Below the pieces are notes generated by a model that was not told where the DNA came from, searched no databases, and saw nothing but the letters and a program-made list of their open reading frames with translations. A stretch of 64,000 nucleotides of DNA from Candidatus Hydrogenedentota bacterium (GTDB lineage Bacteria; Hydrogenedentota; Hydrogenedentia; Hydrogenedentales; SLHB01). Each line of letters starts with the position of its first letter. Position 1 is the first letter of the stretch. The position numbers and the translations under genes are program-made. Location: NCBI GenBank assembly GCA_963745075.1, contig CAVUWV010000010.1, positions 320,001 through 384,000 on the forward strand, given 5' to 3'. Positions 46,577 to 55,194 of the stretch are shown here, piece after piece.

Positions 46577-49500
46577 CTACGGAAACGCCATATCCACCTC
46601 CACCACCGATTCCCCCTCCGGCACAACCACGGGCTTCCCCACAACCTGCCCCAACCCATCCGTCGCTACCAGGAGCGTGTACTCGCCGGGGTCTACGGCG
46701 TCGAACCGAAATGGACCGGGACCGTTGAGCCGGTCCATGCCAGCGGCACGCATTTCCACTATCGTTGCAGAGGTCGCGTTGTTCACGGCAGCCGCATCAA
46801 CCTGGCCCGCGAGCAGGGCCACGTCCAGATCGCCAATTGTGGAGTCGGCCGTTATTCGCCCCCGCACTGACGCGCCGTCCGCAAAATCGAAGTCACGGGT
46901 GATACTGGCCCCAGGCGCGATCGCAAACATCGCCGTCTTGCCAACCCGGCGTCGACTGGCTACCTCTGTTACGACGACAAGCGTGCCCGGGCCCGCCACC
47001 ACATGGGCAAATTCGAAGTGCCCCGCCTCATCGACGGGTCGACTATATTGCACGAGCCCTTCAGCCGCTTCGACCGTCAGCGCCGCCATTATGGGACGGC
47101 TTGTTCCCAGCCCCGGCGCATTTCGTACAGTCCCTGACACCTTAGCACCGGCCGTTTCCAAATTAATATCCAGCCTCGTCGTTTGGTTAGACGCAACGGC
47201 AACGGTCCGCCGGATTCTGCCTATCGGCGAATCGACGGTCACGAGCGCGGAACCCGCGATCAGCTTGTCGACGCGGAACGATCCATCGTCTCCCGTAGTT
47301 GCGATGGGCCGTATCCGATCGTAACTCGAGAACGAAGCCTCCGTGTAGTAGAAATTGACGCGAGCCCCGGGCACAGGCGCACCATCCACAGTCACAGCGC
47401 CTTCAAGAGTTCCACCGTTCGTCAGCGTGAACGTAGGGCTCGGTGAGGATCCCGCATGTACGTCCACCGTAAATTCTCCAGGTGCGTAATCAGGGTGATA
47501 TACATAGATGAAGTTCGTCCCAGGCACGAGATTCCCCAGCGTGCAGGTGCCGTCACGGCCAGTCTTTGCGCTGGCCCCGGAAAACCGTGGGTTATCAAAG
47601 TAGTACGGTAATTCGCCGTTAAAAACCTGCGCCTCGGCTAGCGGTTGGCCGGAAGGGTCAACCACTGTCGCGTGAACCACCGCGCCCGGCTTCACGACGA
47701 GGTCCACTCCGGAGATCGTCTGCCCTGGGTGAACTTCGACGATCGTCGAACTGGGAAAGCACCCGGCCGCTCGCGCCACGACGGCGCAGCTACCCGGCCA
47801 CGCATTGTCCACGCGGTATTCACCGGATTCGTTGACGTACCGGTTGTACGGAAGGTTCGATCCCGCCGACGCCGCCACATCCGCACGAGCCACGGCCAAG
47901 TCAAACTCAGTCATGGGATTCCCCGTCCGACCATCAACCACCCGGCCTTCGACAGATCCGAAACGATCCAAAACGATCTTGAAGTCCTTCGTGCCCGTGG
48001 CAACGCCGTCAATTTGGCGGGAAGGATACCCTTCTGCCCGGATGTTGAGGTCGTAACTTTCCAGGTCGAGACCTTGCAAGGTGTACACGCCGTTTTCGTC
48101 CGATTTTGCCCAGGGACCAAGTCGCCCTGCTCCCCGCGGAATGACATCAGCACCGGAAACGGGCGAGCCCGTGTCATCGACTATCTGCCCGGTGATCGTT
48201 CCAGCGCCTCCACCCACATCGATAATCAAGTCCGAGATGGACTGTCCCGGTCCAACGGACACTTCAGTCGCCGGCTTTCCCAATCCGATTGAATCGGCCA
48301 AAATGAAATAATCGCCGGGAACCAGATTCACAAACGAGAAACGCCCGTTTGCATCGGAACTTGCCGAGTCGAAGCGGTCGCGGGTCTTGCTTCTGATATT
48401 CACACCCACTCCGGCCGCGGCCACACCGCCACCATAAACCAACTGTCCGCTGACCGAACCCATCGGGCGTTTGACGAGCGTCAATGTGACTCCCTCAACG
48501 TCATGGGCTCCTAGGGTGAAGGGTCCTGCCGTTTCGCTCATCCATGCCCCAGCCGTTGCTTGGACGATCACCGCTTCGCCTAGTGCAAGACCTGAGATTG
48601 TGAAGTCTCCGGCTTCACTTTCTTCGATATCGCGACGAGCGCCACGGAAGGCGTCGCTCGCCCGATCGGTATACCGGACTGTAACAGTTATTCGGTCAAA
48701 TTCAGCATCCGGTGGCGCTTTCACCGTCCCGCGGATTGTCGCCCCCTTCGCAAGTCCGAAATCGATTCCCGTAATGGTCTTTCCCAGTTCCACGACGAGG
48801 GGATCCTGCACGGGGTTTTCAATGACCGGGTACCCGGGCCCCTGCACGGATTGGACGTGATACATTCCCGGTCGCAAACGGGCAAATCGGTACGCGCCCG
48901 TTTCGTCTTCGTTGGTGTTTCCGTATTCCGAGACATCCCCCGTCGTACGTAGATTCACTTCTGCGTGTCGGATCCCGTTTCCAGTCTGCGCGTCATACAC
49001 CCTCCCCATGATGATTCCCCCTTGGGCAACCTCGACGGTCACACCCGTCACGTCACCGCCTTCGGGCACGATGAATCCTTTTGACAAAGAGATCAGCTTG
49101 TCATCGTGGATTTGTACAGAATTGCCACCCGGTTGGACGCCATCTAACACGAAGTATCCATCCCTTCCGGTTTCAGTCAGCCGCCCCCGATACATGCTGA
49201 CCTTCAGATCCGGCACCGGCGTGTTCGTCCCCGCATTGACCACCCGGCCTTCCACGTGCGCGCCCGGTGTCAGCGTAATCATTACCGGCGGTTTGTCGGC
49301 CGGCAGATAATCGCTTTCGTAAAGCGCACAGGTCGGCGAATCCACCTGCAACTTCCACGAACCCAGCCACACCGGCGCCAAGTGAAACCGGCCGTCGGCA
49401 TCCGTTCGCACCCCTCGGAGTTCCTGCCACCGATCGGAAAGCCACTCTTCCTCGCCCGTCCAGTTGCCTTGTGTCGGCGTTACGAGTGCATCCGACACCG

Positions 49501-50731
49501 GCGTCCCGTCCTTGCTGTGCACCACCCCGTCCAACGCGCCCGCCGGAAGCATGGCGATCTCGTGCACCTCCGGTTCTGCGGCCGTGTCGCTGCTCATATC
49601 GTCCGCGCCGAACACTCCTGGCGCCGTCGCCTGCAACATATACGCTGTATGTTGCAGATCCCTGAACCTAAACGAGCCGTCATCCCCCGATTTCGTTTCG
49701 TGGTGCTTGCCCTTCCCGGGGTCATAGGGATCGAGCGTGAGGGCCGCGTTCGCCACCGCGTTTCCGGACTGGTCGACCGTCCGCCCGCGAATGAAATTCC
49801 CGGCCAGGGAGTCCGCCGTGGCGGTTGCTCCGTGATCGGTCCGATCCGACCGATCCGTCGGATCCGTCCGATCGGCTTGCGGCTCCTCCGCAGCCACCCC
49901 GCTTTGCGCGATGGCTGTCTCGGGTCCGGCGTTCTGCGCGGTTGGTTCCGGCGCATTCGGCCAATACACCACCGTGCCCGCCACCACCAGCACCGCGGCA
50001 ACCGCCGCCATGATCTTCGCCACCACCCCGGACGCGATCGTCCCCGCAACGCCCGCCGCTGCCGCACCCCCCGCAGCGCCCGTTGTCGAAGCGGCACTCG
50101 CTTCCCACGCCGCCGTGACGCCCGCGAGCAGCCCCATGATGGTTTTCACGCGATCCCGGTGCGACCGTTCCGGTGCAACAGCCGGTTCCAGGTGACGCAG
50201 CATCTGCCCGCTCAACGCGTCCCGCGCCCGTTGCAACCGCTTCCTTACGGCGTCCTGGGAAAGTTCCAACAGCGCGGCAATCTCCTTGATTGACCGGCCG
50301 CCGTAATAATGGAGGAGCAACGCCTCGCGATGGATGTCGTCGAGCCCTTCGATCTGCTGCCGCACGAGGACGCGCAGTTCCCGATCTTCGAGTCGATCCG
50401 CAGACGGCTCCTCCATCGCGGCCACCGCATCGACCCGTTCCGCTTCACGGGCACGGCTGCGTTGGTGGTTGCGGCAGATGTTGCGAACGATGGTCAGCAG
50501 CCACGGACCGAACTTGGCGGGCTCGCGCAACCCGTCCAGGGATTCGAAGGCTTTGAGAAAGGCGTCCTGCGCGGCGTCTTCCGCATCGGTGACGTTGCGA
50601 AGCTGCGCGTACGACACCGCGTGGGCCACAGGCAAATAGCGATCGACCAGCACCGCAAATTCGTCGTGCTTCCCCGCGCGCACCCGCAGCACGACTGCCG
50701 CATCATCGGAAGTCTTTCTAAACCACGGCAT
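46577..50731 (-). CDS. Second ECF sigma factor fused to a TM segment and many carboxypeptidase-regulatory-like repeats
   Basis: 'DAEDAAQDAFLKAF', 'FGPWLLTIVRN', sigma4 'IKEIAALLELSQDAVRKRLQRAR'; TM 'IMAAVAAVLVVAGTVVYW'; repeated 'G.VVD..G.P' units. Confidence 0.9.
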   Translation of the reverse strand: MPWFRKTSDDAAVVLRVRAGKHDEFAVLVDRYLPVAHAVSYAQLRNVTDAEDAAQDAFLKAFESLDGLREPAKFGPWLLTIVRNICRNHQRSRAREAERVDAVAAMEEPSADRLEDRELRVLVRQQIEGLDDIHREALLLHYYGGRSIKEIAALLELSQDAVRKRLQRARDALSGQMLRHLEPAVAPERSHRDRVKTIMGLLAGVTAAWEASAASTTGAAGGAAAAGVAGTIASGVVAKIMAAVAAVLVVAGTVVYWPNAPEPTAQNAGPETAIAQSGVAAEEPQADRTDPTDRSDRTDHGATATADSLAGNFIRGRTVDQSGNAVANAALTLDPYDPGKGKHHETKSGDDGSFRFRDLQHTAYMLQATAPGVFGADDMSSDTAAEPEVHEIAMLPAGALDGVVHSKDGTPVSDALVTPTQGNWTGEEEWLSDRWQELRGVRTDADGRFHLAPVWLGSWKLQVDSPTCALYESDYLPADKPPVMITLTPGAHVEGRVVNAGTNTPVPDLKVSMYRGRLTETGRDGYFVLDGVQPGGNSVQIHDDKLISLSKGFIVPEGGDVTGVTVEVAQGGIIMGRVYDAQTGNGIRHAEVNLRTTGDVSEYGNTNEDETGAYRFARLRPGMYHVQSVQGPGYPVIENPVQDPLVVELGKTITGIDFGLAKGATIRGTVKAPPDAEFDRITVTVRYTDRASDAFRGARRDIEESEAGDFTISGLALGEAVIVQATAGAWMSETAGPFTLGAHDVEGVTLTLVKRPMGSVSGQLVYGGGVAAAGVGVNIRSKTRDRFDSASSDANGRFSFVNLVPGDYFILADSIGLGKPATEVSVGPGQSISDLIIDVGGGAGTITGQIVDDTGSPVSGADVIPRGAGRLGPWAKSDENGVYTLQGLDLESYDLNIRAEGYPSRQIDGVATGTKDFKIVLDRFGSVEGRVVDGRTGNPMTEFDLAVARADVAASAGSNLPYNRYVNESGEYRVDNAWPGSCAVVARAAGCFPSSTIVEVHPGQTISGVDLVVKPGAVVHATVVDPSGQPLAEAQVFNGELPYYFDNPRFSGASAKTGRDGTCTLGNLVPGTNFIYVYHPDYAPGEFTVDVHAGSSPSPTFTLTNGGTLEGAVTVDGAPVPGARVNFYYTEASFSSYDRIRPIATTGDDGSFRVDKLIAGSALVTVDSPIGRIRRTVAVASNQTTRLDINLETAGAKVSGTVRNAPGLGTSRPIMAALTVEAAEGLVQYSRPVDEAGHFEFAHVVAGPGTLVVVTEVASRRRVGKTAMFAIAPGASITRDFDFADGASVRGRITADSTIGDLDVALLAGQVDAAAVNNATSATIVEMRAAGMDRLNGPGPFRFDAVDPGEYTLLVATDGLGQVVGKPVVVPEGESVVEVDMAFP

Positions 50732-50770
50732 GATTGTACCTCGCCTCCCCTGCGAAGGCGTCACGCCGGG

Positions 50771-52492: not shown

Positions 52493-53248
52493 TCAATCCC
52501 GCGCGGCCGTCGCGCGCAATGGCAGACTGTGCACTTCCGCCGCGCCGTTGGGCAGGATGTCCCGCGGCCAGTAGCGCATCACAGCATCCGCGGCCCCCGC
52601 CTTGATCGCCACTTGCGTAATGCTCCGCGTCGTCGACAGCTCCCGGTCCATCAGCGGAGAATAGGCTTCCTCGCCCTCCGGCTGAAGCGCGTGAAACGAC
52701 GGCAGAAATCCCCGCATCGGACATCCCGCCTCGCGCCATGCGGCAAAAGCACCGCGCCGCCACATCGTCACCTCCTCCGTCTTCCACGACGACGACACCA
52801 GCATCGTCCACGTTTCCTCCGTATCCAACGCTGGCAGAAGCCCACGCCCGGTCCATGTCTGCGCGATGGTCTGTTCAAGCGAACACACGAGCAACGTGAA
52901 CGAGGGATACGGCGTCGGATCGAAGTGTCCTGAAAACGCGGCCCGAATGTCCTCTAGTCCGCCGTGCTCCAACAGCCTCGGCACGATCTCGCCACGGGTG
53001 GGTACCGGCCCATTCGCGTCTTCCGGCCGTTCCCCCTGCGGAAAGTACGCATTGACCAGACACCCCACGACTCCCGCGTCGTTTACGGCAATCCACATTC
53101 CGCCCCGATCCGAGTCGCGCGGACCCAACAAGGCGTGCGCACGACCCAACCGCTCCGGCGGAATCTCCGGACCGCGCACCCGCGCCTCATCCCGGTTCAT
53201 CGTTACCGTCAGCGCGGTATCGGTACGATGAATGCTGATCGTGCACAT
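52493..53248 (-). CDS. NRDE/TANGO2-family protein
   Basis: N-terminal 'MCT', 'NRDE', 'PRD...GG.WIAVN..G'. Confidence 0.85.
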   Translation of the reverse strand: MCTISIHRTDTALTVTMNRDEARVRGPEIPPERLGRAHALLGPRDSDRGGMWIAVNDAGVVGCLVNAYFPQGERPEDANGPVPTRGEIVPRLLEHGGLEDIRAAFSGHFDPTPYPSFTLLVCSLEQTIAQTWTGRGLLPALDTEETWTMLVSSSWKTEEVTMWRRGAFAAWREAGCPMRGFLPSFHALQPEGEEAYSPLMDRELSTTRSITQVAIKAGAADAVMRYWPRDILPNGAAEVHSLPLRATAARD

Positions 53249-53501
53249 GCGATTCGCTCCCGATCGATCGCTACAACCTTTTCCAGTGTAACACTCCCTG
53301 CGTACGCACGAGCACAGAATTATTGCATTGCCCCCGCGGGGCAAACGACTCCGGTCCGGGCAAGGAAACTACGTTGCACCAATAGCTTACACCCGGCAGG
53401 GGGAGGTGCTTCGCCGTGTAATGCGGCGCCCCATTGCCGGTATTATTCACGGAAGTGAATGCCACTGCCTCTCCGAGAAAAAGACGCTGGGAGTATCCGT
53501 C

Positions 53502-53657
53502 GTGAAACGCACCAAGAACCTGACAAAACCCAAGCTGTTTATCCGCGATCTCGAGCGCCCCGCGCCCGCCAAAGGCAAAGCCACCACCCTCGCCGTCGGT
53601 GAGGAAGCGTGGTGGAAGGGTGGCGTCACGACTCTCGCCCTGGGTGAAGAGGCCTGA
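53502..53657 (+). CDS. Graspetide (omega-ester peptide) precursor, plesiocin type, two cores
   Basis: GGAG RBS plus GTG start; MKRTKNLTKPKLFIRDLERPAPAKGKA-TTLAVGEE-AWWKGGV-TTLALGEE-A. Confidence 0.9.
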   Translation: MKRTKNLTKPKLFIRDLERPAPAKGKATTLAVGEEAWWKGGVTTLALGEEA

Positions 53658-54600
53658 GTCCGCGAACCACGCCCAAACGCGGCTGGGTCGCCATCTTCGG
53701 CGCAAAGAACGACCCGCAGGTGCGCCGTGTTTCCCGCGCGTTGCGCGAACGGGGCGGAAGTGTTTTCTTGTGCGACAGTGTCGCCTTTCCGGAGACTGTA
53801 CGGGTTTCCTTTGACGAAGACCGCGTCCGGGTCCATGGGAAACCGGTGCCGGAACCCATGCGTTCGGCGTACGTGCGCACGCTGGGCACCAGCTACCGCC
53901 TGCCGAATCTCGCAAAGGAATTGAAAGCCCGCCCCCACGGATTGCTGGCCCAGCTCGACGAATGCGGCGCCATGATGGCATCCATGGCCTGCACCCTCCG
54001 CGAGCGGGGCGTTCCGTTGGTCAACGACCTCGACGTCAACGCCCAACACGGGCGCAAGCCCTATCAGTTGCGCCTCCTCCGCGATGCCGGTCTCCCCGTG
54101 CCGCGCTACCTCGCCAGCAACGATCCCAAAGCGGTCCGCACCTTCGTCCGCCGCGTGAAACGCGCCGTGTACAAACCCATGGCAGGCGGCGCAACCGTCC
54201 GCGAAGTCAAGCCGGAAGACCTCTCCGACGATCGGTTGGACGCCCTGGCCTACGCCCCCGTCCTGTTCCAGGAGCTGATCGAAGGGATGTTCCGTCCGCG
54301 TCTACGTCGTCGGCGGGAAAGCTGTCGCCGCCGGCGAGTATCCACTCCACCGAACTCGACTACCGCCGCGCCGAAGACGCCGTGGTCCCCACCCGGCTCA
54401 CTACCGCCGAACGCCGCGCCGCAATTGCCGCCGCCCGCGCCTGCTCCATGCGCTTCAGCGGCGTCGACCTCATCCGCACGAAGGAGGCGTTCCTCGTCCT
54501 CGAATGCAATCCGTCCCCCATGTTTGCCGTCTTCGAAAAAAAGACCGGCGTCGACATAGCCGGCCCCCTCGCAAACTACCTCCTCAACCCTGAAAGCTGA
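53654..54600 (+). CDS. ATP-grasp macrocyclase (PsnB/MvdD/RimK superfamily); two frameshifts near 54290 and 54335
   Basis: 'KPYQLRLLRDAGLPVP', 'YKPMAGGA', 'FQELIEG', 'VRVYVVG' (bridging frame), 'LDYRR', 'FSGVDLI', 'LECNPSPMF'. Confidence 0.88.
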
Positions 54601-54607
54601 TCGCAAT

Positions 54608-54670
54608 TCTTCTTCGTTCTTCGTTCTTCGTTCTTCGTTCTCGTAATCGTAATCGTAATCGTTCTCGTAA
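54608..54670. repeat. (TTCTTCG)n then (CGTAAT)n simple repeats
   Basis: Directly visible, just 3' of the ATP-grasp gene. Confidence 0.8.
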
Positions 54671-54854: not shown

Positions 54855-55194
54855 TTACTGAGCCGCCGGTTCGCGGACCAACTCGTCCAGCTTTTCTTCG
54901 ACGTTCCTTGGCCTCTTCCGCCGTCGGCAAGGGATCCTGCGTCTCATTGATCACCGGCCAGTCCGCCGCGAGTTCCTGATTCAACGCGATGTAATGCTGC
55001 CACTTCTCCGGCAGATCCTCTTCCGGGTAAATGGCGTGAACCGGGCACTCATCCACGCACGCACCACAATCGATACACTCGTCGGGATCGATTACGAGCA
55101 TGTTAACGCCTTCGTGGAAGCAATCCACCGGACACACCGCCACGCAGTCCGTGTACTTGCACTTGATGCACGGTTCGACAACGATATGGGCCAT
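54855..55194 (-). CDS. fdxA: FdxA-type (7Fe) ferredoxin; probable frameshift near 54903
   Basis: '[18 protein letters not shown]...[21 protein letters not shown]'; an alternative frame ends [15 protein letters not shown]. Confidence 0.9.

Follow-up and report, generated by a model that had tools for sequence, protein, structure and literature searches.

A predicted plesiocin-type graspetide precursor and PsnB-like ligase pair in Candidatus Hydrogenedentota

The window (the whole 64,000-nucleotide stretch of a Candidatus Hydrogenedentota contig that was analysed) carries a small gene for a 51-aa peptide that runs directly into an ATP-grasp ligase gene on the same strand (Table 1). The peptide ORF is nested within a 109-aa mechanical ORF and, as a first-pass annotation of the sequence had described, encodes a leader motif, LFIRDL, and two cores, TTLAVGEE and TTLALGEE. 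The adjoining ATP-grasp gene carries the DYR and ECNPSPMF motifs also reported there, both of which sit in the last of its three frame pieces. Contigs of public runs, possibly from the source sample, are identical to the window at 53460-53623, 53568-53718 and 54001-54267, and a public-run contig confirms the junction between precursor and ligase. A GGAG similar to the Shine-Dalgarno-like site of the window lies 5′ of the precursors in loci L001-L004. A promoter scan found no sigma-70 site.

Table 1. Features at the graspetide locus and its immediate flanks, with positions in the window.
Feature	Position	Strand	Basis or remark
TANGO2/NRDE-family gene, divergent	52493..53248	-	Not recurrent beside relatives' loci
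Shine-Dalgarno-like GGGAG	53489..53493	+	8 nt upstream of precursor GTG, from sequence
Graspetide precursor, 51 aa (predicted)	53502..53657	+	GTG 53502 to TGA 53657; dN/dS, homologues
Leader recognition motif LFIRDL, residues 12-17	53535..53552	+	Alignment to 7DRM chain E; PsnB paper
Core 1 TTLAVGEE, residues 28-35	53583..53606	+	Motif search; ring pattern inferred from PsnA2
Core 2 TTLALGEE, residues 43-50	53628..53651	+	Motif search; ring pattern inferred from PsnA2
PsnB-like ATP-grasp macrocyclase gene (predicted)	53654..54600	+	Three frames in assembly; overlaps precursor end
Break 1, one extra base vs relatives	54284..54290	+	DNA alignment to four relatives
16-codon middle piece with equivalent of PsnB catalytic Arg213	54291..54338	+	Alignments
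Break 2, one extra base vs relatives	54338..54339	+	DNA alignment to four relatives
Ferredoxin FdxA, convergent, outside system	54856..55194	-	+1 break at about 54904; break changes C-terminal tail

Across all six frames of the genome (6.8 Mb in 36 contigs), the tandem double TTxxxxEE pattern occurs once, in this precursor, and single matches number 45. Up to an E-value of 10, its sole match in the PDB is PsnA2 residues 14-38, a weak hit (E 0.75) that spans the leader motif and the first core with spacing nearly equal to that of the precursor. F13 and D16 of the precursor correspond to PsnA2 F15 and D18, and both residues are kept. Compared with two same-genus genomes, the precursor gave dN/dS values of 0.027 and 0.017, so strong purifying selection acts on it, as measured inside one genus. 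The expectation that standard annotation would miss the gene held in part: gene callers do predict it, as an over-extended 78-aa protein (P0085), but Pfam and NCBIfam assign it no family.

Two features of the leader had been singled out from the sequence. The first, a change from E to R within the LFIEDL-type motif, lies in a freely variable column (E in 15, K in 4, R in 3, S in 3 and D in 2 of 27 relatives), and FIRDL is found in at least two other Group 2 rows of a 2026 RODEO survey (PMC13097080, supplement 2). We therefore regard it as ordinary variation; the leader contacts named in the consulted sections of the PsnB paper are F15 and D18, not E17 (10.1101/2021.03.09.434688). The second, a very basic leader, stands as a description, with nine K/R against two D/E in residues 1-27, but is not peculiar to this locus: Bacillota, Omnitrophota and Planctomycetota rows of the same survey likewise include basic LFIEELE leaders.

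Among characterised enzymes the ligase is closest to PsnB. In searches of the PDB, its N-terminal piece alone matched PsnB (7DRM) at E 7e-31 and left RimK unmatched. The C-terminal piece by itself could not tell the two enzymes apart (RimK E 1e-9, PsnB 6e-9). An intact orthologue, P0003, is 77% identical to the N-terminal piece and matched PsnB at E 6.7e-56; the graspetide enzyme that came next scored 4.5e-15, and RimK 1.7e-12. When an AlphaFold model of P0003 (pLDDT 92.8) was searched with Foldseek, ranks 1-10 were PsnB chains (TM 0.76-0.82) and the first RimK appeared at rank 29. Pfam recognized RimK only, on the C-terminal piece, and the ligase scored below every cut-off of the NCBIfam models. 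A separate RimK gene is present in all three relatives tested (E about 1e-60), and the RimK gene of this genome is likewise separate from the ligase and itself split by a frame break.

Using residue roles described in the available sections of the PsnB paper (10.1101/2021.03.09.434688), we mapped 14 PsnB residues onto the ligase, of which 11 are identical (R72, Y171, K172, R181, R192, L196, V201, F203, R213, D233 and R235) and two are conservative swaps (I193 to L and F234 to Y). R72, K172, R213 and the DYR loop, with Y in place of F/W, are present in the ligase and in 33-34 of its 34 relatives. PsnB Arg101 is Asp in the ligase and Arg in 3/34 relatives, in a column near a gapped region that is less sure; this residue is reported to be specific to Group 2a yet dispensable in PsnB (10.1101/2021.03.09.434688, in the sections consulted). 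The LFIEDL-type leader and the pocket residues Y171, R192, I193, L196, V201, F203 and R181 agree with Group 2a, with L at I193, but since Arg101 is replaced, the pair would not be filed there. A Group 1 microviridin assignment was rejected, as the core TxK(Y/F)PSD has no occurrence in the genome and the single ligase here, with scores far below the MvdC/D cut-offs, is no MvdC/MvdD pair. By sequence, by the fold of the intact orthologue and by its residues, a PsnB-like identity of the ligase is supported. Combined with the PsnA2 match, the TTxxxxEE cores and the assignment of close relatives to Group 2 in the survey's listed rows (PMC13097080), this upholds the original proposal that the locus is a minimal precursor-ligase pair of the plesiocin type (Group 2).

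We propose, with a probability of roughly 80%, that the locus is a two-gene Group 2 cassette whose ligase closes two Thr-Glu esters per core, with frameshifts that are likely assembly errors. By analogy with PsnB, the ligase would bind the LFIRDL leader with Phe13 docked in the Y/L/V/F leader pocket, and its Arg213 equivalent would present the core Glu to ATP, giving an acyl-phosphate that is then attacked by Thr. Inner rings (T29-E34 and T44-E49) would form first and outer rings (T28-E35 and T43-E50) next, with loss of up to four H2O (about 5580 to 5508 Da), to yield two bicyclic hairpins. Translation of the ligase would start at a CTG that overlaps the stop codon of the precursor. Cleavage of the leader and export of the peptide, if they take place at all, would depend on genes elsewhere. 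By analogy with other Group 2 peptides, the hairpins may act as chymotrypsin/elastase-type serine-protease inhibitors, a step to which we give slightly better than even odds. Reported Ki values for plesiocin are 16 nM for elastase and 7.5 nM for chymotrypsin (PMC10125368), and a Rheinheimera Group 2 peptide is reported to inhibit elastase (PMC11626197); a full-text literature search found no experimental work on any member of the family described here.

The precursor-ligase pair is a phylum-level family. The ligase was found in 35/135 Hydrogenedentota genomes, about a quarter, spanning six families, and the 100 negative genomes include members of ligase-positive genera. Named homologues are mostly Ca. 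Hydrogenedentota, with three records labelled Nitrospiraceae. A precursor is present in 34 of the 35 ligase-positive genomes, one copy each, and in none of the 100 negative genomes; in the exception, G022 (96% complete), it was not found even at E 10, and an intact ligase lies at G022:C54:3651-4541. Precursor and ligase are adjacent in 29/34 relatives and on different contigs in four, where the precursors (G054:C114:19768, G119:C621:14462, G029:C4:6833 and G013:C210:40164) lie among unrelated genes and their neighbours have nothing evident in common; the G013 ligase is near a contig end. Precursors of relatives have one to three cores. The first core is TTAAKCEE in G015 and G111 and the second is ITFKEGED in G020, variants that could alter the number of rings or the protease preferred. 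The ligase profile matched twice in each of a set of proteins about 630-680 aa long (P0189, P0196, P0211, P0228 and others), which are apparently tandem double ATP-grasp fusions.

Two trees were built, a quick tree and a FastTree that leaves out P0084 and the Pedobacter rows. In these, a single clade (SH 95 and 98) holds 34 of the 35 ligases; genera are monophyletic within it, and the deeper order is not settled. RimK is on a long branch that FastTree puts in the same unresolved node as the ligase clade, and PsnB, which a motif search did not find among 143 added representatives, is absent from both trees, so phylogeny alone does not separate the ligase from RimK.

Flanking genes offered few recurrent partners. 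FdxA is syntenic with the ligase in seven genomes of four genera, and a few other genes recur in two or three genera, among them an oligopeptide-type ABC ATPase in the flanks of three genomes. When the flanking ORFs were clustered, over flanks of 2.4-17 kb of which many were short, no peptidase-fused exporter or peptidase recurred beside the ligase, whereas Group 2 clusters usually include an exporter or peptidase according to the consulted part of PMC13097080; this weakens the secreted-inhibitor step. C39 domains occur in 19/35 ligase-positive and 39/100 ligase-negative genomes, counts that take in the domain whether or not it is fused to a transporter and in which kin are not independent, and none was found at E 1e-8 in the genome of the window. 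A weak C39-like match there (E 1.6e-4, G000:C8:454044-456164) lies in a 257-aa frame and was rejected as a peptidase-fused transporter because it is too short. The second long ATP-grasp gene about 1.4 kb from it is a 496-aa frame with a similar gene in three relatives. Elsewhere around the locus, short tandem repeats (TTCTTCG x4.6 and TCGTAA x5) stand right 3′ of the ligase stop at 54610-54670, with similar ones in unrelated contigs, and a 1395-aa ORF on the minus strand (46577-50764) looks from its translation like an ECF sigma factor with many repeated beta-domains.

The missing exporter, the single copy, the conservation over the whole length and the unlinked cases leave room for a different role, in which the cyclised full-length peptide would stay intracellular, keep its basic N-terminus and regulate a conserved host target, such as a serine protease of the producer, instead of being exported for defence. 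We consider this possible but unlikely. It accords with the retention of a single ligase and a single precursor in each genome over six families, including the four genomes where the two are unlinked, and with the monophyly of genera in the ligase tree. Precursor dN/dS of 0.02-0.03 over the whole length, which is below that of the ligase, points the same way, as do the distribution of C39 domains and the ERPA-type sequence that stands in place of the PsnA2 VTGG past the leader motif. However, the system is lacking from 100 genomes that include members of positive genera, and the strong conservation applies within one genus. The core loop residues are plesiocin-like, the KG or KGG that often precedes the first core could still serve as a cleavage site, and export may depend on unlinked machinery; many of the flanks are short, and the C39 counts cover the domain with or without a transporter.

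Our preferred reading, an active Group 2 cassette, also depends on the two frame breaks in the ligase. The Arg213 equivalent lies in the piece between them, so the enzyme would be lost if the breaks were real, and the locus could then be genuinely dead in this strain, stripped of its catalytic Arg and DYR loop. In favour of such a loss, both breaks stand in the assembly, no read or contig from the four public runs compared spans either one, and no obvious homopolymer surrounds the second. Against it, the ligase is single-frame in 34/34 relatives, and dN/dS (0.15-0.16 before the breaks and 0.18 after) gave no sign of relaxed selection behind them. ORFs from 399 kb of the same-genus genome G003 were also compared with this genome, and frame changes were found in 23/206 orthologous genes, or 22/205 (about 11%) without the ligase, six of them broken more than once. 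Housekeeping genes are among them (lepA, gnd, miaB, recN and hemW, and also rimK), and the ferredoxin 300 bp from the ligase has a +1 break of its own. Breaks across the genome are mostly +1 and often clustered. In the reverse comparison 6/220 genes were broken, five of which mirror the same sites. Because so many other genes and the neighbouring ferredoxin are broken while all 34 relatives are intact, both ligase frameshifts are very probably assembly errors, and a dead locus appears improbable. Apparent pseudogenes in this assembly are suspect, and its frameshifted genes should not be taken as pseudogenes.

No in-frame ATG, GTG or TTG precedes the first conserved strand of the ligase, and the only candidate, CTG 53654, overlaps the precursor TGA. 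The same is true of all five genus-g1 ligases and that of G017: from the in-frame stop upstream to the first conserved strand, none of them contains one of these three codons, and all keep the overlapping CTG in frame despite differing spacer lengths. The genomes with this overlap besides the window are G001, G002, G003, G005 and G017. In G115, an ATA overlaps TAG in the same manner, and in G023 a CTG lies directly past the stop. Most ligases from other genera have a separate ATG, GTG or TTG a few codons ahead of the first strand. From these sequence patterns, the ligase likely starts at a CTG coupled to the precursor stop. Partial synthesis of precursor and ligase as a fusion, through a -1 shift at the precursor end, would also fit the lack of standard start codons and a ligase frame that opens three codons ahead of the precursor stop, but it is very doubtful in view of the absence of a slippery heptamer from the sequence, the nearby standard starts in most other genera and the CTG/TGA overlap that holds its frame at different spacer lengths.

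Very improbable, and rejected here, is that a housekeeping amino-acid ligase of the RimK/LysX type stands beside a chance peptide: Pfam, the slight preference of the C-terminal piece for RimK and the 'RimK-type' database names of relatives lean that way, but the sequence and fold of the whole protein are far closer to PsnB, leader-pocket residues are kept, true RimK genes exist separately and the precursor co-occurs nearly one-to-one.

Among known systems, the pair resembles plesiocin PsnA2/PsnB of Plesiocystis pacifica (7DRM-7DRP) in its TTxxxxEE cores, in an LFIxDL motif set 16-17 residues ahead of the first of them and in a single ATP-grasp ligase, with orthologue P0003 about 37-38% identical to PsnB and the ATP-site, leader-pocket, Arg72, Arg213 and D-aromatic-R residues retained. 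It differs from PsnA2 in its two cores instead of four, in having ERPAPAKG instead of GKVTGGKGG past the motif and in its strongly basic N-terminus, and from PsnB in the Arg101 to Asp and DFR to DYR changes, the likely CTG start and the two breaks in the assembly. RcpA/RcpB of Rheinheimera also combine TTxxxxEE-type cores with a single ligase and inhibit elastase, and four to five dehydrations of RcpA were demonstrated in E. coli, but as described in the consulted text of PMC11626197 they come with an ABC transporter whose C39 peptidase cuts at GG, and none lies beside the locus in the window. Haloarchaeal and Bacillota precursors (Halocatena plasmid; Halopiger cluster4730 in the part of PMC8939145 consulted; Paenibacillus rows of PMC13097080) share a FIEELE/FVEDLE leader with no GG following, a TTxAxGEx core and an adjacent, 40% identical ligase; unlike the pair described here, the haloarchaeal ones have acidic leaders and ligases on separate branches. 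On Halocatena salina plasmid NZ_CP096022.1 (L094 3807-3927), the one-core precursor with a FIEELE leader is unannotated and lies upstream of the 40%-identical ligase, with two hypothetical genes after. RimK/LysX ATP-grasp ligases share the fold and C-terminal domain but are 21-24% identical, exist as separate RimK paralogues in these genomes and lack a leader pocket or precursor.

The first-pass annotation had considered the peptide new, and as a class it is not. Supplement 2 of PMC13097080, in the portion consulted, has at least 19 rows labelled Hydrogenedent-, at least 18 of which are Group 2 precursors of this family, so the family already figures in a published Group 2 prediction table. 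Such rows (for example MCC6486403.1 and MBI5095142.1) have the same basic N-terminus, L(F/Y)IxELE leader and one or two cores, and one of the listed peptides is also encoded in the same-genus genomes G001 and G002. The exact peptide of the window was not found among the listed rows of that supplement. In the passages of PMC13097080 examined, unlinked precursors, one-to-one co-occurrence and discussion of the family were not seen, and the 11 readable supplements of PMC8939145 contain no Hydrogenedent- entry and one similar haloarchaeal precursor. A full-text search, with supplements of PMC13097080 covered in part, found no published link of Hydrogenedent- with graspetides.

The locus adds one predicted graspetide of Group 2 and, for tests of PsnB-type enzymes, a very small scaffold with two cores. 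The family, with one precursor and one ligase in about a quarter of the genomes searched, sometimes unlinked and with no recurrent exporter, offers a clean set of cases for studying what use graspetides are to the cells that make them and by what route a leader is removed without a C39 transporter. Hydrogenedentota might even have domesticated a plesiocin-type graspetide, as a single-copy, exporter-less peptide that keeps its leader, acts on a conserved internal target and is co-kept with its ligase when the genes separate, although we think this rather unlikely. If it were true, it would reveal a regulatory role for peptides of a kind known as secreted protease inhibitors, and neighbourhood-based mining would then be overlooking trans-acting graspetide precursors.
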